Source of the DNA: Chiloscyllium plagiosum
Lineage: Eukaryota
Length of the DNA: 64,000 nucleotides
Reading direction: 5' to 3'
NCBI RefSeq assembly: GCF_004010195.1
Contig: NC_057724.1
Span: forward strand, 40,448,165 to 40,512,164
Shown here: in pieces, positions 2,498-59,675 of the stretch
Layout: the number at the start of each line of letters is the position of its first letter
Position numbering within the stretch: position 1 is the stretch's first letter
Translations under genes and position numbers: made by a program
The notes under the pieces: generated by a model
Told to the model about the DNA's origin: nothing
Seen by the model: only the letters and a program-made list of their open reading frames with translations
The model's database searches: none

Positions 2498-2789
2498 TGA
2501 TGATACAATGAACAAAAGATTGGGGAACGGAGAAAATGGCTGAAAATAGCCCTGTCTACCTTTTCTGTTTTTAATAGTGGGAAATGTAGGCATGGGTGCC
2601 AAACCATAGATCACTCTTCAGTGTTATGGCCAGAGTGCCTTTTAGTACAGGTTCTTTCAGAACATTGGTTAGGCCACTTGTGGAATATTGGGTGCAATTC
2701 TGGTCTCCTTCCAAACAGAAAGATGTTGTGAAACATAAAAGGGTTCAGAAAAGATTTACAAGGATGTTGCCAGGGTTACAGGATATGAG

Positions 2790-3001
2790 ATGGAAATGTG
2801 TTGCTGGAAAAGCGCAGCAGGTCAGGCAGCATCTAGGGAACAGGAGAATCGACGTTTCGGGCATTAACCCTTCTTCAGGAATCAGGGCTAATGCCCGAAA
2901 CGTCGATTCTCCTGTTCCCTAGATGCTGCCTGACCTGCTGCGCTTTACCAGCAACACATTTCCATCTCTGATCTCCAGCATCTGCAGACCTCACTTTCTC
3001 C
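2790..3001 (+). mobile_element. Palindromic Penelope-derived mini-insert (copy A)
   Basis: 85-bp arms at 2787-2871 and 2884-2968 (2 mismatches, 12-nt spacer), 33-nt unpaired tail, 14-bp TSD ttacaggatatgag at 2776-2789 and 3002-3015. Confidence 0.9.
2848..2881 (-). ncRNA. Minimal type I hammerhead ribozyme motif
   Basis: Minus strand reads ttc-CTGAAGA-A-GGGT-taat-GCCC-GAAAC-GTC-gat: intact core, stem II, palindromic ACGT stem III, GUC site. Confidence 0.75.
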
Positions 3002-3754
3002 TTACAGGATATGAGCCTATGGGGATAGACTAAATGGGATGGGGCTGTTTTCCCTGGAGCATCTGAGGCTGGGGGCGGGGTGGGTGGGGGGGCTTATAGA
3101 GGTTTATAAAATCATGAGGGGCAAGAATTGGGTAAATAACAAGGTATTTTCCCCTGGGTGGGGGAGTCCAGAACTAGAGGGCATAGGTTTTGGGTGAGAG
3201 GGGAAAAATTTAAAAGGGACCTGAAGGGCAACTTTTTCACGCAGAGGGTGGTGTGTGTATAGAATGAGCTGTCAGAGGAAGTTGTGGAGCCTGGTACAAT
3301 TGCAACATTTAAGAGGCATCTAGATGGGTATATGAATAGGAAGGGTTTTGGAAGGATATGGGCCAAGTGCTGGCAAATGGGACTAGATTAGGTTAGGATA
3401 TCTGGTTGGCACGAATGAGTTGGACCAAAGGATCTGTTTCTGTGCTGTACATCTCTGTGACTCTAAGACTCTATACATGTCCACAGTTTTTGTGGATTCA
3501 TGCCAGGTTATTAAAAGGTTGTGGTTTACAGCAGATTAAGAGTGTCATGTGCTCTAGTCTGTATAAGGAAACCTTTGGAGAGATAATTTCAAATGATCTT
3601 CCTCATGCACCCCAAGCTAAAGTAAGCTCCCTGAAATAATTCAAATGACCCCTCATAGACCCCACCATGACAATATATTTCCATACACATACATCTACTA
3701 TACATAGGAGGGAAGCAGTGAACCTTGCCATGTCAGTTGGGAGAATGAAAAATA

Positions 3755-8500: not shown

Positions 8501-10690
8501 CGTACCAGTATGACCAATCCTCTACATTTAGAGCTGAAGGAGGAGAACAATATCCTATACATTCCCCCGCTGTAACTTCAAATGTTCCCTATTAGTTAAG
8601 TGTGTCTCTTGCAGCAAAGCGATGTCAACCATTTCCTTCTTAAGGTTTGACATCGCCTTTTTTCTTTTAATGGGGGAAGGGCTCCCTTTTATACTCCAGG
8701 TGCAGTATCTGAACAGATCACTAGCCATGATCGCCCACTGCAGCCCGTGCTCCCCCACGAGGAAGAAGCCCAATCAATGTACAGCGAGTAGAAAAAAAAT
8801 ACAAGACTTTATAAAATCTAAAAACTATCCATACAAACACTAACAAAACTATAAAAAACTAACCACTACACTCAAAGCATAAACCACAAGAGATCTTCCT
8901 CCTCGCCCATAGGGGGCATTCACTCCAAACCTTACAGCTATCCTAGTTCCTTCCAGCTAAGGCTGCATACCAAACCCAGGCAATGCACAGAGAGAAAAAA
9001 AAAACATTGTATACACTCATGGAAGTTAACAATGGACGTCCTTCCCTCCTCCTCCATATCTCAATTCCATACATAGAGTCATAGAGACGTACAGCGCAGA
9101 AATAGACCCTTCAGTCCAACCCATCCATGCCGACCGATATCCCAACCCAATCTAGTCCCACCTGCCAGCACCTGGCCCATATCCTCCAAACCCTTCCTAT
9201 TCATGAAACCATCCAAATGCCTTCTAAATGTTGCAATTATACGAGCTTCCACCATTTCCTCTGGCAGCTCATTCCATACACGCACCACCCTCTGTGTGCC
9301 TTAGATCTCTTTTATATCTTTCCCCTTTCACCCTAAACCTATACCCTCTAGATCTGGACTCCCCCACCCCAGGGAAAAGACTTTGTCTATTTATCCTATC
9401 CATGCCATTCATGATTTTATAAACTTCTATAAGGTCACCCCTCAGCCTCCGACGCTCCAGGGAAAACAGCCCCAGTATGTTCAGCCTCACCCTATAGTTC
9501 AAATCCTGCAACCCTGGCAACATCCTTGGAAATCTTTTCTGAACCCTTTCAAGTTTCACAACATCTTTCCGATAGGAAGGAGACCAGAATTGCACACAAT
9601 ATTCCAAAAGTGGCCTAACCAATGTTCTGTACAGCCACAATATGACCTCCAAACTCCTGTACTCAATAATCTGACCAATATAGGAAAGTATACCAAACAC
9701 CTTCTTCACTATCCTATCTACCTGCAACTCCACTTTCAAGGAGCTATAAACCTGCACTCCAAGATCTCTTTGTTCAGCAACACACCCTAGGACCTTACCA
9801 TTAAGTGCATAAGTTCTGCTAAGATTTGCTTTCCCAAAATACAGCACCTCACATTTATCTGAATTAAACTCCATCTGCCACTTACTTCTCAGCCCATTGG
9901 CCCATCTGATCAAGATCCCATTGTAATCTGAGGTAACCTTCTTCACTGTCCACTACACCTCCAATTTAGGTGTCATCTGCAAACTTACTAACTATAGCTC
10001 TTATGCTCACATCCAAATCATTTATATAAATTATGAAAAGTAGTGGACCGAGCACCGATTCTTGTGGCACTCCACTGGTCACAGGCCTCCAGTCTGAAAA
10101 ACAACCCTCCACCACCACCCTCTGTTTTCTACCTTTGAGCCAGTTACACAAAAGAAGTAACCACTCCTCACCCAGAAAAAAAAGAACAGTGAAATAAGAG
10201 ATAATTTGGCCCAATTAAGTTATTTGAGCAAGTTCAGAAAATCTTTAGTCTTTTCCGCCAAGTTAAAATTACAAATGGATCCACCATGATTAAAACACAA
10301 TACTGCCAGGTACCTCAGATAATATTGAATATTCAAGCCTGTTAGTTTTTTCTTAACATCATCAAAATATTTCCTTTTATTAATTATTGCCCCAGAAAAG
10401 TCTTGAAAAACATTATTCTCGGACCTTTATATACCAGAGCCTGTGGATCTCTTCCCAGTCATCTGGAGGCTTCTATTATTAACTGCTTTTTTAAAAAATA
10501 GTGCTGGAGTTGAACTAGGACTTGGAGGGGGGCACTGATCTGACCCAGACCTGCGCACGTGATCCGGTGGGCCCGCTCCACCCTCACTCAGCACGACTGA
10601 ATCTCTAGCCCCAACAACTTCAGGAGCCACTTCTTCAGGAACTTGACCGGATTGTCGCCCTCCTCACACTCCGGACGATCCACTACATTT
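5561..10690 (-). mobile_element. L1/Tx1-clade LINE, decayed, internally deleted, interrupted by CR1
   Basis: APE endonuclease motifs (TWSIKG, IALLQETHL, IIGGDFN, RIDMF, ISDHA), RT start (GKAPGPYGFP, YRPILLLNVDFKILSKVL), C-terminal CPK...IHCFWSC, ORF1-like C-terminus ~10230-10430, T-rich tail at ~5561-5610. Confidence 0.9.
9071..10145 (-). mobile_element. Younger CR1 LINE 3' kb nested in the L1
   Basis: ORFs 9966-10214 ([31 protein letters not shown]) and 9269-9946 (LEYCVQFWSP, LERRRLRGDLIEVYKIM); tail at ~9071-9087. Confidence 0.95.
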
Positions 10691-11213
10691 AAGTTTTTCC
10701 TCCCACCTCAATTCTCGAGGTCATCAACTTGGTCCAGCAGGGCCTGAACCTGGCCTTCCAGAGTTCGCATTGAGTGTATTTAACATAGCAATAGATAGGT
10801 CTTTGATTAGTAAGGGGATCAAGAGTTACGGGTAAAAGAAAGGAGGGGTTGAGCAACATATCAGCAATGAGCAGAGTCAATGGGCTGAATGGCCTAAGTC
10901 TGTTCCTATATCTTCAGGTTTTGTATTACATTAACACTGTTTCTCTCTCCACAGAAGCTGCAGATCTACTGAGTTTCTTGAGAATTTTTTTTGCGAGAAG
11001 GGATTCATTCATAATGTTTCAATTTGTTAAAAGAATTTTTTTTATTACAGTGCAATAGAAGTGTCAGAAATCCAAACCCTTTGAAGTTTTATTAGCTAAA
11101 ACCATAAAGAAATATGAAACCACTGTAAGCATCAATTATGAAATGGATGGAGATGAAGGCATTGAGTATAAGGATAGACAAGTTAAGCTGCAGCTTTGTA
11201 GAACTTTAATTAG

Positions 11214-11425
11214 CTGAAACTTTATTGCTGGAACAGCACAGCAGGTCAGACAGCATCTAGGGAAAAGGAGATTCGACGTTTCGGGCACATGCCCTTCCTG
11301 AGGAAGGGCATGTGCCCGAAACGTCGAATCTCCTTTTCCCTAGATGCTGTCTGACCTGCTGTGCTGTTCCAGCAATAAAGTTTCAGCTTTGATCTCCAGC
11401 GTCTGCAGACCTCACTTTCTCCTCG
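11214..11425 (+). mobile_element. Palindromic Penelope-derived mini-insert (copy B)
   Basis: Perfect 88-bp arms at 11212-11299 and 11301-11388 around one G, 37-nt tail, 14-bp TSD agaactttaattag at 11200-11213 and 11426-11439. Confidence 0.93.
11295..11328 (+). ncRNA. Minimal type I hammerhead ribozyme motif
   Basis: ttc-CTGAGGA-A-GGGC-atgt-GCCC-GAAAC-GTC-gaa: stem I ttc/gaa, intact core, stem II, ACGT stem III; predicted cleavage after C11325. Confidence 0.8.
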
Positions 11426-11830
11426 AGAACTTTAATTAGGTCATGCATGGAATATTGCATACAGTTCTGGTCACCACACCACCAGAAGGATGTGTTGCCT
11501 GGTAGGGGGGATTTTAGCTATGAAGACTGGTTTGTTTTCACTGGAATGCAGGAGGTTGAGGGGTGCTTTAATAGATGTTTATAAGATCATGATTAGCATG
11601 GATACAGTGGGAAGTACTAGGGTGGAGGGGTCAATTATTAGCGGACACAAGTTCGAATTGTGAGGCGGGAAGTTTTAAAGCAATGTGCAAGACAGGTTTT
11701 TCACATATAGGGTGATGAGTGTCTGGAATGCGTTGCCAGAGGAGGTGGTAATGGCAGCAGTCACAATAGCAGCATTCAAAGAAGGACCCGGACAAATACT
11801 TGAATAGGAAGGGAATAGAGGGATATTGAT

Positions 11831-12941
11831 AAGATTCCCCACAGTAGCCTATTGCCCAAAATGCGGAGGCATAGGTTTGAGGGTGATTTAATGGTTTGGA
11901 TCAGAAATTGGCTTGCTGAAAGAAGTCAGAGGATGGTGGTTGATGGGAAATGTTCATCCTGGAGTTCAGTTACCAGTGGTGTACTACAAGGATCTGTTTT
12001 GGAGCCACTGCTGTTCGTCATTTTTATAAAGGAACTGGATGAGGGCATAGAAGGATCCGTTAGTAAATTTGTGGATAACACTAAGGTCGGTAGACGAAGG
12101 ATGGTGACGAAGAATGTTGTAGGTTACAGAGGGACATAAATAAGCTGCAGAGCTGGGCTGAAAGGTGGCAAATGGAGTTTAATGTGGAAAGGTGTGAGGT
12201 GATTTACTTTGGAAGGAGCAACAGGAATGCAGACTATTGGGCAAATGTTAAGATTCTTGGTAGTATAAATGAGCAGACAGACCTCAGTGTCCAGGTACAC
12301 AGATCCTTGAAAGTTGCCTTCCAGGTTGATAGGGTTGTTAAGAAGGCATACAGTGTGTTACCTTTATTGACAGAAGGATTGAGTTTCTGAACCATGAGAT
12401 CATGCTGCAATTGTATAAAACTCTGGTGCAGCCGCACTTGGAGTATTGCAAACAGTTCTGGTCAGTGCATTATAGGAAGAATGTGGAAGTTTTGGAGAGG
12501 GTTCAGAGGGTATTTACTAGGTATGGAAAGAAGGTCTTACGAAGAAGGTCTGAGGGACTTGATGCTGTTTTCTTTAGAGAGAAGAAGGTTGAGAGGTGAC
12601 TTAATTGAGACATACAAGATAATCAGAGGGTTAGACAGTGAGAGCCTTTTTCCTTGGATGGCGACGGTTAGCATGAGGGGACATAGCTTTAAATTGGGGG
12701 GTGACAGATATAGGACAGCTGTCAGAGGTAGTTTCTTTACTCAGAGAGTAGTAGGGGCGTGGAATGCACTGGCGGCAATAGTAGTAGATCTGCCAACTTT
12801 AAGGGCATTTAAATGGTCACTGGATGGGCACATGGGCGAGAATGGAATAGTGTAGGTTAGTTGGGCTTCAGATTGGTTTCACAGGTTAGCACAACATCGA
12901 GGGCCGGAGGACCTGTACTGCGCTGTAATGTTCTATGTTCT
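11831..12941 (+). mobile_element. CR1 LINE 3' kb
   Basis: [55 protein letters not shown]; tail (tgttcta)n. Confidence 0.95.
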
Positions 12942-15243
12942 AGATCCTGTAAGTGAAGACAGTTTTGGCATGTAAGCACAAAATGTGATGACTCAGGCTT
13001 GGAGGGCTGAAGGACGTTTTTTGGATACTGCATTGTTCTTTGCTGGTATTCAGCTAGTCTGACCAATTAAATTGAGCAACTCCCAATTCAACAATCTGAT
13101 GGACAATCTAATACAAAATGCACTTTAGCTTTTTTAACGAAAAACCGTAAGGTTAAAAAAAAACATTCAATTGCCACAGGTTTGTTTCTCCCATATAGCT
13201 GTAGTGATTGAATGGCATGGAAGTACCTGTACTATACATTGCCGTTGGAGTATTCGAGGCCGTGGGGTTTGTGTGGGGACATGATGTGCCATGGGAGGAT
13301 GGTAGGAGGGGCACACCTGTCATATGTAACATGAAGTGGCATGGATGGGGCATGGAAAGTGTGTGTGGGGGGGGGGGGGGGAGTGTAAGCGGTGAAGGCT
13401 ACAGGCTCGTTCTGTTTATTTTGCACAGCTGTCTCACTGCGATGAGGCAGGCCTTTTAAACAGCTCCCCTCGGCAGCTCTTCTGGCTAGAAGTGTGAAGA
13501 GGTAATGAAGATTGTACCTATAAAGCTGGTCTTAAGGCAGACGTGTGAAGCCAGAAATTTTCTCAACTCCGGTACCTGTCCTGAAAAGGAAATTCCAGCC
13601 CTAAATGAAAAATAGACCGTGACAGGTAGGTTCCAAATCCAATTAAAGTTTTATGCAGACGTTAATTCAATATATTTACTGCCTACATGACTGATAGAAA
13701 CTGCTACCTTTTGGTAATCTAACACGCTGCTATTCATCAATATTTACATGCATTTACTCTGAACTGATGGAACATTAAAATGCCGTCATAAACTCTCAAA
13801 TAGAGGTATTCTGAAGTCTTGGTCTCATTACACCAGATTTAATTCGAAGCCTATATCTTGCCATTTCCACTAGACTTCTTTCAAGTGGAAACAAGAGCAT
13901 AGAAAAGGTTGGGCAGAAAGACGCAAAAGAACGGTGCTCTAGATAATGAGCAGTTCTCGTTACCAAACACTTTTTTTTTCATTTTTGTTATCGAGAAAAT
14001 AAAAAATGTTGCTAGAAATAATTGCAAAACTGTCACGATAGTTATTTAAAAAGCACTTTCGTGTTCCCAGAGTAACGATTCCGCAATTTTCACATGCTGC
14101 ATTTCCATCTTCCTTCTTCTGAAATGGAATCGGTTCATTACGCATGGAATGAAATGAACGCAAACGATAATATTGCCTGTTAAAAATACTTGCAACGACA
14201 AAGAAAATTCTGTTGGTTTAACTGGACAAAGATTCCTTGTTGCATTTTGTAGCCCATGCTGAATATTTAATTTTCACTTAGCATCAATTTGACTCTTACA
14301 CTTAAACAGGAAGAGGTGGAAAGTTTAAGTCACAACTTTCCCAATCCTAGGAAATCATTAAAATTATTTTGGCATTTATCCCAAATCCGAATCCTTTCTC
14401 TGGGTTGATGACATTGGTATAATTGTTGCTGTTTTGACGCACGCCTTGAACCGCCCTTTGGCTGATCTGACAATGATCAGTGAAGGAATACACCAGTCCA
14501 CCGCTGCACAACAAGAATTTTATTGGTGTTTATTACATTGGACTCTATTACTGATTGATCATAGACATTTCTTTGGACTGTTTAGTGCAAAATACAAAGT
14601 GAACTTTTGTGTTCCCAAACTCCATGGTTTCTGTAGGACCCAAATAGTATGCAAAATGACCAAGATATAAGTGAAGGGAATAAATTATACCTGGTTCTCA
14701 CTTACTTTAAGCAAATTAGAAGAACTTGATAATGTAGCCAGGCTCAACAAACCTCAAGTTCACCATGTGTGGACTGCCATTTGCTTCTTTCCCCTTCCTA
14801 TGACCAGGTTTTTGGAAAGAGGTGGTATGGAATGGAACTGAGCCACGAATGAAGCGATGTGAAAGAACACAAGCCATTCAGGCACCAACTCACCTTGGAT
14901 CTGAAGGCAACAACTCCACTGCAGTTAGAGGCACAAGCAGTAAATGTCTAATTCAATTAATTTATTTCTAAGTTTCCTTTGTTTGGTTCCCTAAGTTCTT
15001 TTGTCTTCACAAATCCTGCTTCATTGAATTAAATAATAGCACCCAAGAGAACATATCACAAAACGCAAAGAGTTTTAGTACATAGGCTTTAGCTGAGGCC
15101 TTGTATTTAAAATCACTTCATGTAGAACCATTAGAAAGATGCTGTGTAGAGAGGAGGCCTTAATTTTCTTTAAACATGTGTGTTATTTTTTGTGTGCATA
15201 TTACTTCCAGCTCCTTGAGTGTTTTTTTTGGAATTCAACTTAG

Positions 15244-15622: not shown

Positions 15623-17854
15623 GTGGGAGTATTCCATCACACTCCTGACTAGTATGCCGTGGATGGTGGCCATGCCTTGGGAAGTCTGGTGAATTACTTG
15701 TGGTAGAATGTCCATCCTCTGATCTCAATAACGACTGATCTTATCCATTTGCCTAAGTTAGATAGGAGACCTTCATCCCTGAATGATTTAATCACAGGTT
15801 CCAAATGTAAATAGTCCAGGATAGATACCTGAAGTGTGTCATAGATGGTTATTGGGCTCATGAATTAAAGCTTTTAACATTGTTGAGTGCTATTTTGCTG
15901 CTGTTTATTTTGAAGCTACTCAATTCCATTTCTGCTAAAAGGAAGAATTTATCACCATTGGTGTCAATTCAGATATTATTATCTGAATGCTTGGCTGCAA
16001 ATCTGTGAGCTAACTAGCCCACATTTCGCATGGTCAGCTAATTTGAATGGTTATTTGTTATATAGCTTTGGCCTTGTGCAGGGAGCAAACTTAATAGGTG
16101 ATGTGGAAACATGGCTACTGTCCAAATCAAATAGAGATGTGTATTTAATGTAAGTTTCAACATATTGTGATCAATATTTGCCAACCTTTGCTAATAATCG
16201 GGGGCTTGAAATAATGGGTATAAATAAAATGAAATCAAATGCAAAATGGAAACAAAAAAAATTCTGAAACGAAATTATACAGATATAGTATCTGATCTTC
16301 AGTTTCTATAGTATCTAACTGAGGAAATCAGCATGAATTCATTCAAACAGGGCTTCAGCACTTCAGTGCACTCTCTATAATTAGGAGCATTACATTGTTC
16401 TTGGTATCAGGTGGTGAACAGATTCAATGCCTTGTACACATTTATTACTCCCCCATGCAAACTCTCATTAATCTCTTTGTGCATGCCACACAAATGTAAT
16501 TTAATAGGGTGCTCCTTCAGCGATGTAATATATAATGCCAAGCTCCAACACATCGTCTTAAGACATAATGCCTTACATTATTGTAAAACAACATAGTTAC
16601 ATAAGGTATAGTAACCAATTGACTCTCAACAAGGTTATGAATGGTTTGTCAATGTCTATGTACTCTTCACTTCCAACTCTTCAAGTCTACGTTCATCAAG
16701 TTATGTGTAGCCTAGTGACAAACTGCTTGTATTAGTGCAGTGTAACCAAGACCTGAGAATCTTGGGGGAATGGCGCTGGGAAGGTTATTCCAACGCCAAA
16801 AATATTAAACATCAGTTTCCTTCATGCTACGCAGAATGAACTGTCACATCAACACCGCTAGTGCTAACTGTGGAGCCTTCTAGATAAAAATCCTGGTCTT
16901 AACCACTATAAGACTTTTATGGATGTAACCATATCCTGGCCTGAATGAGGTGAGGTCTGGTGAGAAATGTGACAGAACTTCATAGCAAGTCTCGTGAGGC
17001 CTCTCCAGTCTTGCAGTTAACTTGCTCTATTCTTTTTTAATCCAGGTTTCTGATGACATGGTGATATTTCTGCTAGGGAGACGAGTTGCCTGTTGAGGGG
17101 ACTTATTGCTTGTTAACAACCTGATAAACTGTACATCTGACCTCATTAATATTCCGCTTCGTATGCTACCACCTATCACAAGTGAACAAGACCATGAAAT
17201 TCTTGACATGAATGTCGACCGATAGGGGTTCATCTAATCCTCTTATTAAGAGTGTGCTCTGTATTATGCAAAACAAAAGGAGGCAATGGATATATATGTG
17301 TACATTTTGTTCATTTTTCCTTATTTCCTCATGTTTTTAGGTACATTGTGTTCTACTTTCATAAAATACCTTGCTCTTTAAAACCGTTTCAAGATGTTCC
17401 TTTGCTAACATTCTGCATTCCTGTAAGTTGACACACTGGTGGTGTCAGAATACAGCTTGCAGACCCAGTCAAGTGTTTCACAGTTCTACATCTATCACAC
17501 TGGCAAGTAGATGCAGGTACAGACACAACTGTATTACACAGAAACGTTAGTGATTGGCAGCAGGTAGAATTTCACATCACCTGTGATCATCTGAGGAGCT
17601 ACCTCAAGCTGCTGCATTCAGACTTTTAGGTTTGGTGTGGCTTGCAAATACATTTTGATGGTGCACTTTCCTAGGGCATAGAGTCATTGAGAATGTGCCA
17701 AAGAGCCAGTATACTGTGAGAAATCTATAATGTGTACCTGCAGTTTTAAAGGGCAATTTAAGATGCAGACCAGTAATGAGAATTTGGCTGAGATCCTAAG
17801 CTTAGTTTCTTAGTGAATGCTGAATGTAGCTTCTCAGGTTTGAACCTAAAGCAG

Positions 17855-18053
17855 GTGAAAGTGATGACTGCAGATGCTGGAGATTAGAGTGGTGCTGGAA
17901 AAGCACAGCAGGTCAGGCAGCAGCCGAGGAGCAGGAAAATCAACGTTTTGGGCAGGAGCTCTTCATCAGGAAAGGGCTCCTGCCCGAAATGTTGATTTTC
18001 CTGCTCCTTGAATGCTGCCTGACTTGCTGTGCTTTTCCAGCACCACTCTAATC
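17855..18053 (-). mobile_element. Palindromic Penelope-derived mini-insert (copy C)
   Basis: ~83-bp imperfect arms at 17881-17963 and 17972-18054, tail on the left, TSD ttgaacctaaagcag / ttgagtctaaagcag (17840-17854, 18054-18068); decayed hammerhead CTGATGA...AAAACGTT on the minus strand. Confidence 0.88.
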
Positions 18054-18532
18054 TTGAGTCTAAAGCAGCCTGTCATGTCCAGAATTATGTCAAAAATCAT
18101 CTTGAGACAGTGAAATGTTTGAAATCAATTTATTACTGCCTAATTTATTCTTGTCCGTTAATTTATGGGTGTTTCCAGTAGCAGATAAAAAGAAAACGAG
18201 CTGGTACAGATAATCATGACTTCTCCCTGGGAAATGACAGATATATTGAACAGGACCTGAATGGCAAGAACTGCACAAGAAGTCTAGTGAGGCCTAACAT
18301 GTTGATGCAAGTAACTTATCACATCTTTTAACCAAACTCTGGGTGCTGCGGCCAGATTTATGCTAGGGAATGGAGAGTTGCCTGTTAGGTGGATTGTTGC
18401 TTATTAACAACACATCTCACCTAATTAATAGGCAGCTTCCTATCCTACCACTTCCTGCAGGCAAATGAAATGCTAGGAATTTGAAGTGAAGTTGGAGCAG
18501 CTACCTGGTGACTTAAGTTCGCAGCTTACTAT

Positions 18533-19156: not shown

Positions 19157-22100
19157 ACCTCCCCCTTTAAAAATGAACCATCAATATCCAAAGATGGCTT
19201 CACTTTTCAAAACCCCAAAAAATAGCGGCTCGTACCCAAAAACACACATATACATTCACTGACTATAAACATGCAAACATGCACAACTACATTCAGATTC
19301 AGTCTGTGGTCCTCCCCTACCGAACCCCTCTGTTTCTCATTCGAGTTTTGACAATTCAGCAAGCACGTTTTCTGGTCCTGCAACATGCACAATTTTCAAA
19401 TTGAATGGGTATAACAACAGGCTCCATCTAAACAGTCGAGCATTTTTGTCCTTAAATTTCTCCACAAACTTCAATGGGTTACGATCAGTGTATAGATTGT
19501 CTTAGATGTGTTGCCGGTAATATAAAATTGAAATGTTGTAATGCCAACACCAAATTCTTTTTCAACTGTGAAATATTTCTGCTGATGAATATTCAACTTC
19601 CTGGAGAAATATCCGATGGGTCTTTCTATCTTCTCATTGTCTTCCTGTAAGAGCACAGCACTGACACCCACATCACTCACATTGATTGCCACCTTGAAAG
19701 GCTTTGCTTAATTGGGTATGGCTAATGCCGGGGCAAGGGTTAACACAGTTTTCAGATTGTCAAATGCCTTCTGATAGTCCACTGTCCATTGAAACGTCTT
19801 TCCACTCTTTAGCAATTCGGTGAGTGAAGCAGCCACACTGCTAAAATGCAGCACAAACTTTCAAGAAAATCCACTCAATCCCAGGAACAGTAGTACTACT
19901 CTTTTTGTTGATGATATGGGAAATTCCCCAATTAATTTTGTTTTCGCATCCCATAGGCCATTTGTCCGTGTCCAATAAAATGGTCCAAGAAGGTGACTTG
20001 GGGTTTGGCAAATTCACTTTTAGCTAGGTTTACCACCAAGTCTGCCACCAATTCCCCCACTCTATTTGATTGTTTTCTAAAATTTGACACATAGTCCAAA
20101 TGCATGGTCTCTAAACTTTGACTTACTAACTTCTCCTTAATCAATTTTAATTGTTTTAACAGACTTGGTGATCGAACAAGTCTGATAAATATTGTAAATG
20201 TTCCTTCCATGAGTGACTAAAAATCACCAGATCATCGATATACGCCACAGAGTTGGGTAACCTGGCAGTGGCCTTACTGGTTAGTTTCTGAAATGTGGCC
20301 GGGGCCATGACTTTAAACCAATACAGTCCATTTGGCATTACAAAAGCCGAAATTGCCTTTGCTCTTTCTGACAAAGGTACCTGCCAGTAGCCTCTGAGCA
20401 AGTACAACTTATAAATGTAAATTGCTTGTCAGACCTTTTTCAACACAGTCTTCCAACCGCGGAATTGGATATGCATCAGTCTTTGTAACTGCATTGACTT
20501 TGCGACAGTCTACACATAACCATTGGGTACCATCTGGCTTTGGCACCATTACTATGGGTGATCTCCAGTCAATGTAGCTCACTTTGATTATGTCATCTTG
20601 GAGTATGCGTTCAACCTGTGCTAACTTCAGAGGGTTATGCCTATAAGGATGTTGCTTAATTTGAACAGTATATCCTATATCTACATCATGCACAATTAGG
20701 TTAGTACTTCCCAGTTTATTTCCACAGATCTCCCCATGTGATAGCAATAACTCTTTCAGGTCATTTGATTTTTCTCAAGAAGGTAACTCAATAATTTATT
20801 CCAATTTTTGACAAGTTCTTCATTGTCCAATTTAATTTGAGGAATGTCCAATTGAGAATCCTCTGAACTTGGTTCTTCCCTTTGTGCTGTAATCATTAAC
20901 ACCTTCTCCTTTTGCTTTCCTTCCCTGTCAAAATATCTTTTGAGCATATTCACGTGACACATTCTGTGAGATTTCTTTCTATCTGGAGTCCCTATCAAGC
21001 AGTTCACCTCACTCAATCTCCTTTCAATTCGATAAGGTCCACTAAACCTTGCTTTTAAAGGTTCACTTATCAGTGGAAGTAACACTAATACCTTATCCCT
21101 GACAGCAAAATTGCAAATTGTTAATTTATTGTCTATTTCCTGTTTCATTGCATGCTGCAATATTTTTAAGTGCTGTCGAGCCAACTCCCCCACTCTATTT
21201 GATTGTTTTCTAAAATTTGACACATAGTCCAAATGCATGGTCTCTAAATTTTGACTTACTAACTTCTCCTTGATCAATTTTAATGGTCCTCTCACTTCAT
21301 GCCCAAAAACTGATTCAAATGGACTGAATTTGGTTGATTCATTTGGTGCATCTCTGATCGCAATAAAGTACAAACTGAATTCCCTTATCCAAATCATCTG
21401 GATACTCCTGACCGTAAGGCCTCAACATGATCTTTAGTGTTTGATCTCACCTTTCTAGTGCTCACTGTGATTCTGGATGGTACGCAGTAGATTTTAATTG
21501 TTTTATTCCTAAGTTGTCCATAACTTCCTTGAATAGTTTGGATGTGAAGTTTGACACTTGATTTAACTGTATCTCTATTGGTAGTCTGTATCTAGTAAAT
21601 AATTTGAGTAATTCCTCTACAGTCCTTTTAGCTGTGATATTGTACAATGGGACAGCTTCTGGAAATCTAGTCGATACATCCATTATTGTTTGAGGTAGGG
21701 GAACCTACACAATCAATTAAGACTCTTGTAAGAGGTTCCTTAAATGCTGGAATAGGTATTTCCAAAGTTGCAGGTTTTATTACTGCCTGTGGTTTTCCAA
21801 TTACGACATGTATGACACGTCTGGCAAAATTCAACTAAATCTTTCTGCAGTCCAGGCCAGTAAAAATGTCTTTGTATTTTAGCCAGTGTTTTCCTCACTC
21901 CTAAATGACCTCCAAGTGGTAGCTCATGTGTCACTTGTAACACTTCCCTTCTATAACCCACTGGTAAGACAATTCAATGAATTTATGCCCATTTCTCATC
22001 TGCTTGAATCTGTGATGGTCTCCATTTCCTCATTTAAGACATCATTTTTCAGGTAATAACATTTAGGGTTACATTCAGATTCCTTCTCTGTAAGTACCTT

Positions 22101-26530: not shown

Positions 26531-27069
26531 TGGCATATAGAAGGATGAAGCTAGAATTAGGCAAGAGTGGTGCTATGGGTGGATGGTAGTTAATGAGAAG
26601 AGTTTGGTTGATACAATGAGACAACTTGCAGAGAAGAATCCTCTGTAAAACTAAATGCAATGGACTGAAGGCAAACACACACACACAAGATTCAGTCCTT
26701 TATGTCCATTGAGAAAAAGACTGTGTTTGAGAGCCAGCCAATCCCTGTTACCTCATCATGATTCAGTGCCACTCCCATCAAAATCCAAAAAGATTTAAAA
26801 ACTCCCTCAAAACATATAGCATAGCATTTCCATTATACGTGTACTAATAAAAGAAAATCAAAAGCAACTGAGTCCAAGTTAGATGTTTAACTATTTAATT
26901 AACACCATTCGATCCCTCATAGCTAAATACACATCTAACTGGAGAGGGGTAAGAGAGGATATTAACTGGACCTGGTGAAAAGGACAAAGTGCAACAAGGT
27001 ATACTTTGGGAAGGTGAACCCGATAGACTATGAGGTAAAGCAGTGGTGATCTCACAAATTTTTCAGCCA

Positions 27070-28452
27070 AGAACATAAAACATAGAACAGTACAGGCTGG
27101 AAGAGCAAGAGCAAGGGTCTGATTCTCACACACACTTTGGCCCTCAATGTTGCGCCGACCCCTCTCCAGTTAGATGTGTATTTAGCTATGAGGGATCCAA
27201 TGGTGTTAATTAAATAGTTAACCATCCAACTTGGAGCTCAGTTGCTTTTGATTTTCTTTTATTAGTATACATATAATGGAAATACCAATCTGAAGCCCAT
27301 CTAACCTACACTATTCCATGTATGTTCATATGCTTGTCTAGTGAGGACTTAAATGTACTTAAAGTTGGCGAATCTACTACCGTTCCAGGCAAAGCATTCC
27401 ATACCCTTACTCTGAGTAAAGAAACTACCTCTGACATCTGTCCTATATCTATCACCCCTCAATTTAAAGCGATTTCCCCCTTGTGTTTGCCATCATCATA
27501 CTTGGAAAAAGGCTCTCCCTGTCCACCCTATCTAAACCTCTGATTATTTTATATGTCTCTATTAAGTCACCTCTCAACCTTCTTCTTTCCAATGGAAACA
27601 GTCTCAAGTCCCTCAGCCTTTCCTTGTAAGACCTTCCCTCCATACCAGACAACATCCTACTAAATCTACTCTGCACCCTTTCCAAAGCTTCCACGTCCTT
27701 CTTATAATGCGGTGACCAGAACTGTACACAATACTCCAACTACCTCTGACATCTGTCCTATATCTATCACCCCTCAATTTAAAGCGATTCCCCCTTGTGT
27801 TTGCCATCATCATAGCTGGAAAAAGGCTCTCCCTGTCCACCCTATCTAAACCTCTGATTATTTTATATGTCTCTATTAAGTCACCTCTCAACCTTCTTCT
27901 CTCCAATGGAAACAGTCTCAAGTCCCTCAGCCTTTCCTTGTAAGACCTTCCCTCCATACCAGACAACATCCTACTAAATCTACTCTGCACCCTTTCCAAA
28001 GCTTCCACGTCCTTCTTATAATGCGGTGACCAGAACTGTACACAATACTCCAAATGCGCCCGTACCAGAGTTTTGTACAGCTGTAGTATAATCTTGTGTT
28101 TCCAGAATTCGATCTCTCTATTAATAAAAGCTAAAACACTGTCAACCTGTGTGGCAACTTTCAAGGATCTGTGTAACTGGACACTGAGATCTCTCTGCTC
28201 ATCTACACTACCAAGAATCTTACCATTAGCCCAGTACTTTGCATTCCGGTTACTCCGACCAAAGTAAATCACCTCACACTTGGCCGCATTAAACTCCATT
28301 TGCCACCTCTCAGCCCAGCTCTGCAGCGTATCTATGTCTCTCTGTAACTTACAACATCCTTTGTCACTATCCACAACTCCACCAACCTTAGTGTTGTCTG
28401 TAAATTTACTGACCCACCCTTCTACGCCCTCACCCAGGTCGTTTATAAAAAT
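27070..28452 (-). mobile_element. CR1 3' part with internal ~315-bp tandem duplication and two templated inserts
   Basis: ORF 27613-28374 (WQMEFNAAKCEV, LEYCVQFWSP, RRLRGDLIETYKII); same subfamily as 11831-12941. Confidence 0.93.
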
Positions 28453-31400
28453 TTGTCTCCCTCAGATATTTGGGTCCCCACTCTATGATGGACAAGGCCA
28501 ACGTGTCAGTTTATGGAAATTTGCTAGAAAAAGGAAAAACTGGTGGTACAATGTTAATCAGTTAAAGGCCAATGGAATCTGAAGCATTGGCCACCAACTC
28601 TGTGCTTCTAACAAACTGGAGGAAGCAGACACTAATCCAAGTCCTCATCCAGACTGCAGACTAGTCATTGATCCAGACCCAATCGGAACACTCAATCCCG
28701 ATCCAGGCCATGATCCTGGACCAGCCTGGGACACTGTCCCTCCTGAGGCCTCAACCACAGGATCAGAAGCAGAGCTGATCCTACTAATCCCTGCCAGGAG
28801 AGGTGGGCCTCAGTGCAGAGCAATCATGAAGTGAAAGGGATGGTTAAAGACAGTACTCTCTGAATGTGTCCTATGCAGTACTCTAGCCCAGAGACAAAGA
28901 GAACCCTTTTATGAAGGGTAGTCATTTTGATGCTCCCATCCCATTGAGACTGGAAGAGCAAAAGCAAGGGTCTGATTCTCACATGCACTTCATTACACAC
29001 CAACCCTGGTGTTCTGCTAATCCCTCTGGTCATAAAAGAGCATAAACCTCTACCACCATCGTAGCCCAAATACGCTAGTCTGCCCTGGTTGTACAGGATT
29101 ACAATACCATACCTGATGATTGATGGTGATGGCTATCTTTGTGACGTTTGGGCCACTTTCATCCTTTGGCTATTTCTTGCCATCTCATCTGTGTTTTATT
29201 CAAATCAAAGGACATTTTTGTCTTTCGCCCATTTTTCATCTTGTCATCTAAATTTTAATCATCCAGAAATTTAATGGTGCCGATGCACCAACTTGCTTCT
29301 GATCTTCCATTTTTGGGTCAAGGTCAGGTCTGACACATACTGAATTGACTGACAAAAGAGTAATTGTGAGAATTTGATGAAAGCAAATTTTGGGAGGAGT
29401 TTAGTGAGCATGGTCCAAGATCAGACAGGGTAAGAGAAAAGTCTCTACAGGTCGAGAAGGGTGGGGAGATATCTAAACTTGGTCAGATATTACATAGGTA
29501 TAAGAACAGATGCCACCTTGATCCCCGCTGCTGGATGGCAACATACAGCCTGTTGATCTATATTGGTTGGAATGTCAGAATACGATTGTGAGAAGCGCTA
29601 ACTGGACAAGTGTACATTTATCCTGGCTCTATGTAGTTTGTCCCACCAGCGGCAGGCAAACATGAGGATGATGTTTGGTGAGTCAACCCCAACAAATCCA
29701 TGATGTTTGGCTCCAAAAACCAGCAGGTTGAGTGTAGGAAGCCACATGGTAGCTCAGATTATTGCTATCTGAACACAGAATGGGGTTTTTCCACAAATGT
29801 ATGTACAGAAATGAAAAGCTTTGCTACTAGTTCAGAGGAAGGGCTAGAAATGGGGCAATGATGGCCCAAAAGGTCATAAGGGAAAACTATGTCCTGTATG
29901 AAATTAGAAATTACACGTTTTTCTGCGAACTACCTCAGAATCGCAAAATAGAATGGTTTTAAAACACAGGAAAAACCTGCATGACACCATCCACTATAAA
30001 TTGGTCAGAATATGTCCAGATCCCAGTTGCCAGAGTGGTGCCCTTCTGAACTTCAGAAATTATACTTGTATTTGACCCACCATCTATTAGGATGGAAGAC
30101 AGGGTTTGACATGAGGGAGGTCAGACCATAGCCAGCCAGCCTTTAAAACAAGAGAAATGCTAAATGATGTGGCAACAGCTACTGAGTAGGAGTGTCCACA
30201 GTCAATAACCTTAACTTGACTAAGTTGGATAGTATACACAGACGTTTAAACCAGCAAGTTAGCAAAACTTCAATAAAATTAGTCTGGACAGTCAGCAAGA
30301 GGCAGGGGGAGTAAAATAAACACATGGTCATAGTGCTAGAATGGCACACCAGAACTGTAAATGAGATCAGCTGTGGAATGATAAGCAACACAATAGGACT
30401 CGATGCAACATCTATTGTCTGTAGATGATCAAATAATCATGGTCTGTCTGCGTACTATAAACTAATAAATCTTTTCTTACATCAACCCACGAAAGTTTAA
30501 TCACTTGCGGCAATTGTCTTGGGCAAGTAGTCATTTCTCATACGGTATCTCTTCTCTTGGAGAAGTTCTTCAAGGGACATATTAAATTGGAAAGACTTTT
30601 CATTCCATTCACATGCACACAGGCCAATTAATCCTTACACACTGTGCTTACATATCAGGGTCAATTAATTACTCAGCAGTAAATCCACAAGCTGATGGAA
30701 TAGTCATTCCTTATTCATTATGTTTTTCCATTAGTCTATTGATTACTGTTTATGCTCTGGATCCATACTTTGGGAACATTCTGTCTTTCACAGAAAGACA
30801 TTCACATTCACGCAATCACACATTCACACATCATATGTACACATTGGGACTAATTAACTTTCATGCATCTATTTATGAGCTGTCTGCCTCAATTAGGTGA
30901 GTAATCCAGAACCTGATCAAAGCAGTTATACCAAGTTCACAAACCTCTAAAATTCTTTACCCTCTAAACCTTCTTGAAATTTTGGTTTTATTTGCAGAAT
31001 TCAACAATACAATAATGGCAGATTATAAAGGAATGATTGAAGTCAAAGACCCCAACATATCTCAGTCTTGAGCCTGCCAAAAAGTCACTCAGAAATGCAG
31101 TTAGTCAGTGAAAAATGAAACCTGACAGACTTCGAAACAAAAAATAGACTTTGAGGTTGATCTGAAGTTGTGGAGATGTAAAGGAAATGTCTGTCTATAG
31201 TTTTACATTTCAGTTCTTCCAACATAGTTACTGACTGTTCACAGCATAAAGGCAAAATTTTCTACAAATTGAAAATTCAACCATTAAAGCCATGAAGAAG
31301 GGTAGCATATCACAGGAAGAAGTTGTCTTTCAATCACAGAATAACTCAGGTATTGGTCTGTTTACTCAAAAAGGTAAACAATGGCACAAATATTTAGAGT

Positions 31401-31599: not shown

Positions 31600-32005
31600 C
31601 TTTAAATGTAGATGTTATGGATGTAAAATATGAAGAAACAAAAACATAAAATGGATTGCACCACATGCTAAAGGTACGTAAAAAGGAAAGGATTAGCAAA
31701 GAAAAATATGAGTCATGAGTGTGGTGCTGGGAAAGCACAGCAGGTCAGGTAGCATCCAAGGAGCAGGAAAATTGATTTTTCAGACATAAACCCTTCATCA
31801 GCTCATTCCTATGAAGGGCTTATGCCTGAAACATCAATTCTCCTACTCCTCAGATGCTGCTGTGCTTTTCCAGCACCACACTCTCGACTCTGATGTCCAG
31901 CATCTGCAGTCGTCACTTTCTTCAAAGAAAAATATGAGTCTGTTACAGGTAGAGACAAGATAATTTATAACATAAGTGAAGAAATGGCAGAAAACTACTC
32001 AAGTA
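31600..32005 (+). mobile_element. Decayed CR1 ORF2 mid fragment containing palindromic insert D
   Basis: YVKRKGLAKKNMSLLQVET...EEMAE reads across the TSD and resembles the CR1 pre-RT region. Confidence 0.6.
31715..31922 (+). mobile_element. Palindromic Penelope-derived mini-insert (copy D), older
   Basis: Imperfect arms homologous to copies A-C, same tail, 18-bp TSD caaagaaaaatatgagtc at 31697-31714 and 31923-31940; decayed hammerhead motifs on both arms. Confidence 0.88.
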
Positions 32006-38352: not shown

Positions 38353-38366
38353 ACTGTTAAATTAAA

Positions 38367-38545
38367 AATTACACAACACCAGGTTATAGTCCAACAGGTT
38401 TAATTGGAAGCACACTAGCTTTCGGAGCGACGCTCCTTCATCGAAAGCTAGTGTGCTTCCAATTAAACCTGTTGGACTATAACCTGGTGTTGTGTGATTT
38501 TTAACTTTGTATACCCCAGTCCAACACCGGCATCTCCGAATCATG
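38367..38545 (+). mobile_element. Palindromic PLE-derived mini-insert of a different family (copy F)
   Basis: 63-bp arms at 38362-38424 and 38442-38504 (1 mismatch), 41-nt tail, 14-bp TSD actgttaaattaaa (38353-38366, 38546-38559); minus strand at the apex reads (tc)GATGA-A-GGAGC-gtc-GCTCC-GAAA-GCTA. Confidence 0.88.
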
Positions 38546-38639
38546 ACTGTTAAATTAAACTACTACAATTAAATTCTAATCACAAGTAAACAGTGTTCTA
38601 ATTTGTAAACATGAGCATTTAATATTAGAGCCCACCACT

Positions 38640-39650
38640 GAATGCAGCCCAAAACTAAGGGTGGCTTTATCCTCTTTAAGCAGGCCATATAGGGGTTTGT
38701 GGTCAGTTATTATCATAAATTTTCACCTATAAAGATATTGCTAGAACTTTCTGACTCCAAATATGACTACCAATGCTTCTTTTTCTATTTGGGCATATTT
38801 ATGTTCTGCATTAACTGAAGTCCTGGATGCTTAAGCTTTTGGGCGTCCCTCTTCATTGGGCCACTTATGAGTTAATACCAGTCCAATGCCATAGTGGGAG
38901 GCATCGCATGTCAATGCCTGAACTTTCCAGGGATCATAGTGTGCCAACACCTTAGAGAATGATAGTTGTCTCTTTATTGAAAGCTAGGGCTTGTCTATGA
39001 CACTATTCCCAAGCTGACCCCTTTTTTTGGAGTTCTGAAGAAGGATAACTAGATCTGAAATATAAACTCTGCATTCCCTCCATAGGTGCTACCAGACCTG
39101 CTGAGTTTTTACAGCACTTTCTTTCTTGATTCTTTTTTATGGGCTCATGCAATGATACCAGGATGGATGGTGGGATGTGTATGGGCTTTCTGTAATAATG
39201 TACCAGACCCAGAAATGACCTAGGCTCCTGACAGATGTTGGAATTGGGACAACTTTGATTGCTTACTTTATCTTCCAATGGGTCCAACCTGGTCTTGTTG
39301 ACTGTGTAGCCCAAGTAGGTCACTTGGGTGGCCTGGAATACACATTCTTCCCTTTTTAGGTACATCCCTGCTTTAAACAAAATACCTATAGGACTATGTC
39401 TAAATTCTCTAAGTAATTCTTATTAAATTTCCATGTTATCAGGATGTCCTCTAGGTAAATGGCAATCTAAGGTAGACCTTGCAAAATGCTCTCCATAATC
39501 CATTGAAAAATTGAGCAGGCTGACGATGTGCTGAATGGTAGTCTCATATTCTATAAACTCTTATGGGGATCTAGTCTAAATTTATTGCAAGTAAGTGTGG
39601 CCCAGATCTGCTTTGTGAAGGACAAACCTCCTGCCATATATTGGGTATTT
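38640..39650 (-). mobile_element. Gypsy RT/RNase H fragment (different family)
   Basis: LKREECVFQATQVTYLGY, RSFLGLVHYYRK, CDASHYGIG, YAQIEKEALVVIFGVRKF, YLEDIL. Confidence 0.85.
39035..39130 (+). mobile_element. Short PLE terminal fragment with decayed hammerhead-like motif
   Basis: ctgaagaagg-ataacta-gatct-gaaa followed by cagacctgctgagtttt, similar to 10930-10990. Confidence 0.55.
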
Positions 39651-48745: not shown

Positions 48746-49344
48746 CCCCCCTTGCAAAGGTAGCAGGTGAAAATGACATTTGAGGAAAAGGACAACAGCT
48801 GACATGACATCATACTTTAATTAAGCAGAGTCAGCATGGCTTCATGAAAGAGAAATCATGTCTGACTAATTTATTAGAATTTTTCAAGAAAGTCTCAACC
48901 AGAGTTGATAGACGAAAACCAGTAGATATGTTGTGTTTGAACTTCTAGAAAGAGTTTGACAAGGTACTTCACAAAAGATGAAATCATAAGATAAGGACCT
49001 ATTACATTGAAGGTAGTATATTCCTGTGGGTAGACAATTGGCTAATATGCAGTAAACAGCAAGTGGGGCTAAGGGATTTTTTTTTCATGTTGGCAACCGG
49101 GGTTTACCCGGGGATCAGTGTGAGGATCACAACTGTTTACAATATGTATTAATGATGTGGAGAAAGGGAGGCAAATTTTCAGATGACACAAAAATAGATG
49201 GAAAGGTAAGTTTCACAAACTATGCAAACAGTTTATTGAGAGATATTGATCGGTTAAGCATGTGGACAAAAAGTTAGCAAATGGAGTATGATGGAGAGCG
49301 TGATGTAATTCATTTAAAAGAGAGAACAAAAGAACAAACTGTTA

Positions 49345-50712
49345 GTGAGTCTTGATAAGATTTGTAGCTCAGGTTGAGGTTCTGGATGTAGGTTTGCTCA
49401 TTGAGCTGGAAGGTTCATTTTCAGATGTTTAGTCACAATACTAGGTAACATCTTCAGTGAGCATCCGGATGAAGCACTGCTGATGATTCCTGCTTTCCAT
49501 TTGTATGTTTCGGTTTCTTTGGGTTGGTAATGCCATTTCCTGTGGTGATGTCATTTCCGGTTCTTTTTCTCAGGGGCATGGTAAATGGGGTCGAAGTCAA
49601 TGTGTTTGTCGATAGAGTTCCAGTTGGAATGCCATGCTTCAAGGAATTCTCGTGTGTGTCTCTGTTTGGCTTGTACTAGGATGGATGGGTTGTCCCAATC
49701 CAAGTGGTGTCCTTCCTTATCTGTATGTAAGGATACTAGTCAGAGAGGTCATTTTGTTTTGTGGCTAGTTGATGTTCATGTCTCCTGGGGGCTAGTTTTC
49801 TGCCTGTTTGTCCAATGTAGTGTTTGTTACAGTTCTTGCACGGTATTTTATAAATGAGATTAGTTTTTCTTGTCTGTATAGGATCTTTCAAGTTCATTAG
49901 CTGCTGTTTTAGTGTATTGGTGGGTTTGTGGGCTACCATGATGCCAAGGGGTCTGAGTAGTCTGGCGGTCATTTCAGAGATGCCTTTGATTAGGGGAGAG
50001 TGGCTAGAGTTTCTGGACGTGTTTTGTCTGCTTGTTTGGGTTTGTTGCTTAGAAATCAGTGGGCTGTGTTCCTTGGGTACCCATTCTTTTTGAATACACT
50101 TCATAGGTGATTTTCCTTTGTTCTGCACAGTTCCTCTGTGCCGCACTGTGTTGTGGCACATTTAAATAATGTTCTGATGCAGCTTTGTTTGTGGATGTTG
50201 TGATGTTTGCTTCACCCACACTGCATACAAAGTACCGTTCAAGAACTGTAACAAACACTACATTAGACAAACAGGCAGAAAACTAGCCACCAGGATACAT
50301 GAACACCAACTGGCCACAAAACAACATGACCCTCTTACTAGTATCCTTACATACAGATAAGGAAGGACATCACTCCGATTGGGACATCACATCCATTCTA
50401 GGACAAGCCAAACTGAGACACGCGCGAGAATTCCTCGAAGCATGGCATTCCAACCGGAACTCTATCAACAAACACATTGACTTGGATCCCATTTATCATC
50501 CGCTGAAAAAAAAACAAGAAATGACATTACCATTGGAAATGACATCACCACAGGAAATGACATCACCAACCTAAAGAAACCCAAACATATAAATAGAAAG
50601 CAGGAATCATCAGCAGTGCTTCATCTGGAGACTCACTGAAGATGTTACTGAGTATGGTGACGAAACATCTGAAAATGAACCTTCCAGCTCAGCAAGCAAA
50701 CCTAAATCCAGG
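49345..50712 (-). mobile_element. Penelope (Poseidon-type) 5'-truncated copy with ~480-bp inverted arms
   Basis: GIY-YIG motif LIYKIPCKNCNKHYIGQTGRKL...HEH (ORF 49736-50161), FLEAWHS in the inverted copy (50223-50712), ~35-nt tail on the left, approximate TSD acaaactgtta / acaaagtgtta (49334-49344, 50713-50723). Confidence 0.93.
50633..50672 (+). ncRNA. Hammerhead ribozyme motif in Penelope pLTR, probably decayed
   Basis: tca-CTGAAGA-T-GTTAC-tgagtatg-GTGAC-GAAAC-ATC-tga; ACGT stem III changed to ACAT; the mirror copy at ~49418-49460 has GAAA>TAAA. Confidence 0.7.
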
Positions 50713-51456
50713 ACAAAGTGTTACTTAAATAAAGAAAAGCTACAAAGGGACTTTGTGGTATTTTGCATAAAACACAGAAAGCTAGCACACAAGTGTTGCA
50801 TGTAATCATGAAGGCTAATGGAATGTTGATCCTTATTTCAAGGGAGTATAACAGTAGGGAAGTCTTACTGCGACTGTATAAGGTGCTGGTGAGACAACAC
50901 CTAGAGTACTGAGAATGGTCTTGATCCCTTTATTTAAGGAAAGCTATTGCTTCATTGGAGGCAGTTCAAAGAAAGTTCACTAGGATAATCCTTGCTGTGA
51001 ATGGATTGTCTTATGAGCAAAGGTTGAATAGGTCAGGACTCTGCTCAGTGGAGTTTAGTAGAATTAGACATGTTTTCAGTACAAAAATAGGATTGTTAAG
51101 AATCTTGACAGGGATGTTTCCCCTTGTAAGAAAGACTGGGACAAAAGGGTATAGTCTCCGAATAAAGGGACATCAATTTAAAACTGAGATGAGGAAGAAT
51201 TTCTTCTCTCAGACGGTTATGAATCTTTGGAATTTCTTGTCACAGAGAGTTTTGGGTGCTGGATACTTGTGAATATTTAAGGCTGAGATGGATAGATTCG
51301 TGATCAGTAGGGAAATCGAGGATTACAGGGAAAAGACAGGAAAATGGATGTCAGGAACGTCAGATCTGTCATGATCCTATTGAATGGTGGGACAGGTTTG
51401 AGGGACCAAATTACTTACTCCTATTCCTATATTTTACAGTCTCATAGGAGACTCTT

Positions 51457-59496: not shown

Positions 59497-59625
59497 TATT
59501 AGAAAAATGGAGGACAAACTTTCCTTCCAACTAGAGTGTAGGTTCAGAGTGCTGTAGTAACCTAAATTTCCATAAAGCTGCTAGGAGGGGGATGGATACT
59601 AACATACTTCGTGAGACATCCCTGA

Positions 59626-59649
59626 ACTTTTTTGTTGTTCTTTTCCCAG
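59626..59649 (+). promoter_or_regulatory. Splice acceptor preceding the receptor coding exon
   Basis: Polypyrimidine tract ctttttttgttgttcttttcccAG|G with branch-like ctgaac just upstream. Confidence 0.75.
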
Positions 59650-59675
59650 GTGTGGCTCTGACCTTGGAGTATCAC

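Follow-up and report, generated by a model that had tools for sequence, protein, structure and literature searches.

A perfect palindrome carrying a minimal hammerhead motif in a shark genome is very probably a stump insertion of a Penelope-like retroelement

Insertions of Penelope-like retroelements (PLEs) are described as containing an inverted, 5′-truncated copy and a 30–40 bp tail (PMC8557442), and their inverted junctions as showing palindromes, 8–10 bp target-site duplications (TSDs) and a 31-bp tail (PMC3846280). The minimal hammerhead ribozymes of PLEs show no cleavage as monomers and low cleavage as dimers, and motif pairs on opposite strands, 100–700 bp apart, have been linked to truncated PLEs (PMC4209133). 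In the lizard element PAc, two reverse transcriptase (RT) start sites define the tail, extension takes place on both strands, and uncleaved RNA serves as the template; cleavage by the PAc ribozyme depended on protein, and insertion in vitro did not require the ribozyme (PMC11167929). The layout, the tail, the junction palindromes and the opposite-strand pairs of minimal hammerheads are known already in print. Here we analyse a palindrome in a 64,000-nt stretch of the Chiloscyllium plagiosum genome (contig NC_057724.1; hereafter the window), which is very probably a stump insertion of an endonuclease-containing (EN+) PLE and is ordinary for its class.

The arms of the palindrome (11212–11299 and 11301–11388) are complementary at 88 of 88 positions around a single G (G11300), as a preliminary description of this DNA had stated. 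That description confined the feature to 11212–11388, which is correct for the palindrome and too short for the element: the palindrome is part of a 212-bp insertion (11214–11425) flanked by identical 14-bp direct repeats, and its outer 2 bp (11212–11213) are the end of the left repeat. Neither the repeats nor the tail, host LINE or sister copies had been noticed. The parts of the locus are as follows.

11155–11494, plus strand: host LINE fossil, presumably CR1-type, split by the insertion
11200–11213, plus strand: left TSD copy, 14 bp, of which the final 2 nt are microhomology shared with the inverted arm
11214–11299, minus strand: inverted 5′-truncated copy of a PLE terminal repeat, without tail; the hammerhead is kept from about A6/G8 on
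11295–11305, no strand assigned: head-to-head junction, read by hand, with a 3–5 nt arm overlap and the micro-palindrome TTCCT-G-AGGAA
11295–11328, plus strand: minimal type I hammerhead motif, predicted cut after C11325
11301–11388, plus strand: direct arm of the palindrome, a sense copy of the terminal repeat
11389–11425, plus strand: 37-nt tail, on the direct arm only
11426–11439, plus strand: right TSD copy, identical to the left at 14 of 14 positions

The host site supports insertion. Without the insertion and one repeat, the sequence can be aligned through the junction with three further LINE copies of the window, and the LINE reading frame is in phase on both sides and resumes across the duplication. 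The host is presumably of the CR1 clade; a sister LINE gives only a weak RT match in Pfam. About 1e-5 matches of 14 bp would be expected by chance near the element ends, and there is no direct-repeat copy of the arm within 9000–14000. The focal copy thus has the insertion features of EN+ PLEs, namely a head-to-head inverted 5′-truncated copy, a one-end tail of 37 nt and a 14/14 TSD. In the focal copy (11343–11423) and its 2.8-kb sister, one frame runs open from an ATG and on through the tail; its equivalents in the other two family copies are stop-free. The beginning of the parent ORF may lie in this frame. When one copy served as the query of a peptide search, a weak one, a single candidate for the parent ORF came up and none at E ≤ 10. 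At 10930–10980 lies an old single-orientation fragment that, by eye only, resembles a PLE terminal repeat of the same kind.

The hammerhead is of the minimal PLE type with a palindromic ACGT, and its core is intact on the plus strand only, both as previously noted. Specifically, the 5′ strand of stem I (TTC, 11295–11297) is followed by the core CTGAGGA (11298–11304) and an extra A (A11305), the one unpaired nucleotide between A9 and G10.1. Stem II (GGGC/GCCC, 11306–11309/11314–11317) has 4 bp and a 4-nt loop, with G11306–C11317 as the G10.1–C11.1 pair, and is followed by GAAA (11318–11321), ACGT (11321–11324), C17 (11325) and GAA (11326–11328). All conserved positions are present: C3, U4, G5, A6, N7, G8 and A9 at 11298–11304, G12, A13 and A14 at 11318–11320, and U16.1 and H17 at 11324–11325. 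The minus strand reads CTCAGGA, with C at the G5 position, so that only the plus strand of the focal copy has the core. ACGT (11321–11324) is the 15.2–16.2 palindrome, which forms no stable helix III in a monomer, and a second family in the window has AGCT there, a compensatory change. Helix I has 3 bp in the fused focal copy; in unfused copies, to judge by loose ends of RNA reads, an A precedes TTC and would make 4 bp. The extra A had been likened to the hammerhead of the CChMVd viroid, but it is standard in PLE minimal hammerheads (PMC4209133). Stem II of the focal subfamily (11306–11317) is nearly self-complementary, and two RNAs can form a 12-bp intermolecular duplex there in place of two hairpins.

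A strict descriptor of the minimal hammerhead matches two places in the window, the focal copy and a sister copy at 2878 (minus strand), and has no match in 200 dinucleotide shuffles of the window. A looser descriptor matches seven places, five of them in the PLE elements noted here or in an old fragment near 39 kb. Searches of Rfam return no hammerhead, either at the gathering score (0 matches in the window) or at E ≤ 10; around the locus, 19 weak matches at E ≤ 10 all fall below gathering and are mostly miRNA-type hairpins. Pattern scans for further copies returned 11 matches (0 in viral contigs, 5 in metagenomes and 6 in prokaryote genomes), all of which extend over only 21–25 nt and were rejected as chance. 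A scan for a σ70 promoter and terminator, which is not applicable to a vertebrate, found nothing.

A blastn search of the 64-kb window reveals five loci of the focal family, comprising four TSD-bounded tailed palindromes and one old fragment near 39030–39116. The three sister palindromes and two further PLE elements are listed below.

2776–3015, plus strand: sister copy of the focal family, 14-bp TSD, arms 98% identical, core on the tail-less arm
17846–18068, minus strand: older sister copy, 9-bp TSD, arms 90% identical
31697–31940, plus strand: oldest sister copy, 18-bp TSD, arms 86% identical, CpGs lost
38353–38559, plus strand: second hammerhead family in the same layout, with 14-bp TSD, tail, junction in the hammerhead and stem III palindrome AGCT
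49334–50723, no strand assigned: longer PLE insertion with an 11-bp TSD (10/11) and a tail at one side, made up of two head-to-head, 5′-truncated copies that bear GIY-YIG

The arms of the four family palindromes are 100% (focal copy), 98%, 90% and 86% identical; the nearest neighbour of each arm is its partner (8 of 8), and the centres of the copies all differ. The copies, 205–212 bp long in 4 of 4, share the family positions of their inner and outer ends. Net of microhomology, the tails measure 37, 33, 32, 41 and 34 nt, and 21 nt in one copy with three probe mismatches. Microhomology between target and arm, computed by script, is 2, 3, 0, 5, 5 and 1 nt, the 0 coming from the copy with a poor probe match. 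TSDs range from 9 to 18 bp across the elements and are mildly AT-rich (58/80 A/T against a 60% background, P = 0.016). In the longer element (49334–50723), each copy ends in a minimal hammerhead, the tail is 34–35 nt, the copies are 87% identical, and the GIY-YIG remnants have 85% protein identity to the best shark match; its junction, near 50211–50226, is far from the hammerheads. A PLE protein fragment in the window has its nearest named relatives in three carpet-shark genera, in keeping with a cartilaginous fish as host. Judged from the sister sequences, the palindrome is a recurring by-product of the family and not a unique switch.

Other features of the window were noted in passing. The old fragment at 39030–39116 is a single-orientation, PLE terminal-repeat-like sequence in which a hammerhead-like core is still present. 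An inverted repeat at 26826–27286 has 125-bp arms (120/125 identical) about 207 bp apart, with no hammerhead and no TSD found, and part of its spacer recurs at 28947–28990. Remnants of an LTR retrotransposon (integrase C-terminal and SH3 Pfam matches) lie at 20409–21421 (minus strand). About 48 kb from the palindrome, an intact 425-codon frame (59535–60812, plus strand) encodes a rhodopsin-family 7TM receptor (Pfam 7tm_1, 2e-56), which we take to be P2Y-like.

Across the six elements of this one window, the junctions cluster at the hammerhead. By hand reading of the focal copy, the tailed arm has its start 3 nt ahead of C3, that of the inverted arm lies at about A6–G8, and the two overlap by 3–5 nt. 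In five of the six elements the join falls within the hammerhead or no more than 8 nt ahead of it; these joins are all 5′ of the cut site, and none coincides with it. The long element at 49–51 kb reveals that joining can also occur away from the hammerhead. The hand-read overlap at the centre is only about 1–2 nt at 2.8, 17.9, 31.8 and 38.4 kb. By the same reading, the core lies on the tail-less arm at 2.8 kb and on the tailed arm at 17.9 kb, is reached by both arms at 31.8 kb, and is whole in neither arm at 38.4 kb (38353–38559). The tail-less arm reaches further 5′ in two of the five short elements (the 2.8-kb and 38.4-kb copies). Because these five junctions lie 5′ of the cut site and none at it, the templates were uncut there, and which strand keeps the core is incidental: the core on one strand only reflects where the join fell.

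Folding predictions bear on whether the focal copy could cleave. The insertion is predicted to fold as one hairpin of −178 kcal/mol, and keeping the core free with stems I and II formed carries a penalty of 47 kcal/mol in a read-through RNA, or about 11 if the RNA starts at 11289, in agreement with the earlier proposal that a read-through RNA buries the ribozyme in the hairpin. The modelled probability of a hammerhead-like fold is about 1e-33 in the read-through RNA, 1e-8 for a start at 11289 and 5e-6 to 8e-3 for a start at 11295. A hammerhead dimer (−13.5 kcal/mol) compares with −29.6 kcal/mol for a stem II-swapped duplex, in models that ignore tertiary contacts and protein. Given the hairpin cost of about 47 kcal/mol and a helix III that is not closable in the monomer, cleavage by the focal copy is unlikely, and the ribozyme is probably inert in this context. 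The companion proposal, that an RNA lacking the left arm self-cleaves, is likewise unlikely, as helix III has no loop, stem I has 3 bp and PMC4209133 reports no monomer cleavage.

We examined four of 24 listed public runs, three DNA and one RNA. In two runs, from what we call organism A, the flanks are near-exact (0 differences in 299 nt; 0 and one gap in 327; 1 in 317), while organism B differs by about 2.6% (7/255, 4/164). A contig from organism A matches 11306–11371 exactly (66 nt) at a depth of 1069, against about 20 in the flanks, which suggests tens of identical arms in that organism, depth being a poor measure of copy number. Organism B has zero depth at 11332–11335, suggesting that the focal subfamily is younger than the A/B split. 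Within the family, the focal letters at 11335 are carried by less than 1% of depth, and most depth has A at 11302, where the G makes the centre perfectly symmetric. In reads and contigs of all four runs, the element exits at 11421–11424 into mixed unrelated flanks. None of the four runs contains a read or contig that spans the palindrome. No exact empty allele is found among the joints listed; joints that skip the insertion differ from the local empty site at several letters and are probably paralogous LINE copies.

About 2% of the RNA run, which is poly(A) single-cell data, was read. It yields 556 reads, nearly all repeat-derived, with none on the unique flank bins (10996–11127) and no pile-up of ends, although such data show cleavage poorly, and the focal letter at 11335 occurs in 0 of 118 reads. 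Loose ends before 11295 reveal transcribed, unfused copies that continue upstream. A>G differences in this run are also present in DNA contigs. For the earlier suggestion of transcription and editing at the focal locus there is, in this single run and by this weak test, no sign.

The focal copy had been called a recent insertion. That it is an insertion is borne out by the TSD, the tail and the LINE frame; that it is recent holds in a relative sense. By arm identity it is the youngest of the four family copies, and its TSD and all six arm CpGs (3 + 3) are intact. Zero differences in 102 bp bound the divergence only at below 2.9%. At the mutation rate of the epaulette shark, given as 7e-10 per generation in PMC10587355, this bound allows an age of up to about 2e7 generations.

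The identity of the palindrome as an EN+ PLE stump, which we regard as highly probable, rests on the TSD, the inverted arm without tail, the direct arm with one, the hammerhead at the junction and the recurrence of this layout in five other elements of the window. The explanation as a whole, in which the palindrome is in addition a by-product of integration, is likely. Since the centres differ between copies, each palindrome was probably built at insertion. As to the route, we lean slightly towards two primers. The GIY-YIG nuclease of the element would nick both strands 14 nt apart, and each free 3′ end would prime reverse transcription on uncleaved element RNA, one from an outer site at the end of the tail (about 11425) and the other from an inner site (about 11388). 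Both cDNAs would end in the hammerhead region, be joined through short TTC/GAA complementarity and then be filled in, leaving the palindrome as a by-product formed at insertion. This route extends to the shark what was seen in vitro with a single lizard element. Arms copied from independent templates could differ, whereas those observed always match each other; two primers would therefore require both templates to come from one source. Against the explanation as a whole, similarity links an RT-EN ORF to another family of the window with the same layout and not to the focal family.

A lesser but real possibility is that a single cDNA, primed at the tail end, reached the 5′ edge of the hammerhead, snapped back on GGAA/TTCC, copied itself and joined the other target end by the 2-nt microhomology. 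Self-priming is proposed and preferred for such junctions by Arkhipova et al. 2013 (PMC3846280), and it would yield identical arms without further assumption, including the 11335 letters that under 1% of family depth carries; the focal centre, a ready 4–5 bp fold-back, fits it well. What it leaves unexplained is the shared inner stop of the inverted arm, a site that matches the second RT start in PMC11167929. Moreover, the overlaps at 2.8, 38.4, 17.9 and 31.8 kb are only about 1–2 nt, and at 2.8 and 38.4 kb the tail-less arm extends further at the centre, an asymmetry for which priming of one cDNA at the tail end offers no simple explanation. Identical arms would also result if they were homogenised later by gene conversion or hairpin repair, or by assembly polishing, in which case the copy may be older than it appears. 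The A that prevails at 11302 in the family, where the focal G gives perfect symmetry, and the equal mapping of short reads to both arms are compatible with this reading, which we nevertheless consider improbable: the TSD is also 14/14, the 3 + 3 arm CpGs are intact, sister copies retain arm differences of 2–14%, and an independent run contains the exact 66-nt contig at about 50 times the flank depth.

That the palindrome is a self-contained non-autonomous element of the MITE or retrozyme kind, replicated in one piece, is very unlikely. Similar sizes (205–212 bp, 4/4) and high density would suit such an element, and non-autonomous PLE derivatives exist (bioRxiv 10.64898/2026.07.22.740005), but all five centres differ, the copies are inverted and not head-to-tail tandem, and a TSD of variable length (9–18 bp) with a tail at one end only speaks against a MITE or cut-and-paste transposition. 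Still less probable is a functional switch or dsRNA source used by the host, off as a hairpin and on when self-cleaving. One strand does keep the core, the hairpin is very stable and family RNA exists under the same species label; against this, a hammerhead-like fold is improbable for every RNA start modelled (about 1e-33 to 8e-3), the hammerhead dimer loses to the alternative dimer (−13.5 vs −29.6 kcal/mol), RNA depth on the unique flank bins is zero without a pile-up of starts or ends, the A>G differences recur in DNA contigs, and the core is placed haphazardly among the sister copies. An assembly artefact, from a fold-back read or a chimera, is scarcely credible. In three DNA runs the palindrome is not bridged by any contig, and inverted PLE structures are known to trouble assemblies (PMC8557442), but an artefact would account neither for the tail, the 14-bp duplication and the LINE frame that continues in phase behind the insertion, nor for five further cases with diverged arms.

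Candidate causes of the clustering of junctions at the hammerhead are an RNA end, an RT stall and template pairing through a ribozyme dimer. In an unlikely version of the last, the minimal PLE hammerhead would be a module for RNA pairing more than a cutter: the helix III palindrome and a swapped helix I would hold two uncut templates antiparallel, and two RTs starting from both target ends would meet at the ribozyme, where the cDNAs would be joined. If true, this would explain why five of six junctions fall in the hammerhead 5′ of the cut site, why the palindrome (ACGT, AGCT) is conserved despite feeble cleavage, and why the arms always come from one subfamily. The clustering may equally have a simpler cause, such as stalling of the RT at the ribozyme structure or an RNA 5′ end slightly upstream of it. 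In the open-licence literature searched, we found no paper on hammerhead-centred stumps in sharks or on template pairing by ribozymes.

Taken alone the locus is of small importance, since the 64-kb window has four copies of the family. Stumps as a class preserve a record of PLE integration: some 230 bp suffice to read both ends, the target duplication and the junction. They bear on the way in which PLEs produce inverted, tailed insertions and on the purpose of the weak PLE hammerheads, questions raised by PMC8557442 and PMC11167929.

In comparison with described systems, the focal copy closely resembles the complex EN+ PLE insertions with an inverted pLTR and tail (PMC3846280; Craig et al. 2021, PMC8557442), with which it shares the head-to-head truncated copy, the palindrome or overlap at the junction, the 30–40 bp tail and the short TSD. 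Unlike in those insertions, both copies here are without the ORF body, TSDs are 9–18 rather than 8–10 bp, and the junction lies in the hammerhead in 5 of 6 elements. The motif matches the minimal type I hammerheads of metazoan PLEs (Cervera and de la Peña 2014, PMC4209133) in its core, the one extra nucleotide between 9 and 10.1, the G10.1–C11.1 pair, the palindromic 15.2–16.2 and the lack of loop 3. It departs from them in a stem II of 4 bp (7–8 in Schistosoma), in a stem I cut by fusion to 3 bp, where helix I of PLE minimal hammerheads has 4–5 bp, and in copies that overlap within the core. With Poseidon PAc of Anolis carolinensis (Frangieh et al. 2024, PMC11167929) it shares a tail between two fixed sites downstream of the hammerhead, AT-rich targets and a template spanning the uncut ribozyme site; in contrast to PAc, the ATT motif is absent at the nicks inferred here, and that study does not reconstruct inverted products. 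Non-LTR retrozymes (PMC7229834; bioRxiv 10.64898/2026.07.22.740005) are likewise short, non-coding, hammerhead-bearing, PLE-derived repeats of vertebrates, but they form tandem repeats, head to tail, whose RNAs are processed into linear and circular species, whereas the focal copy is a single head-to-head inverted insertion.
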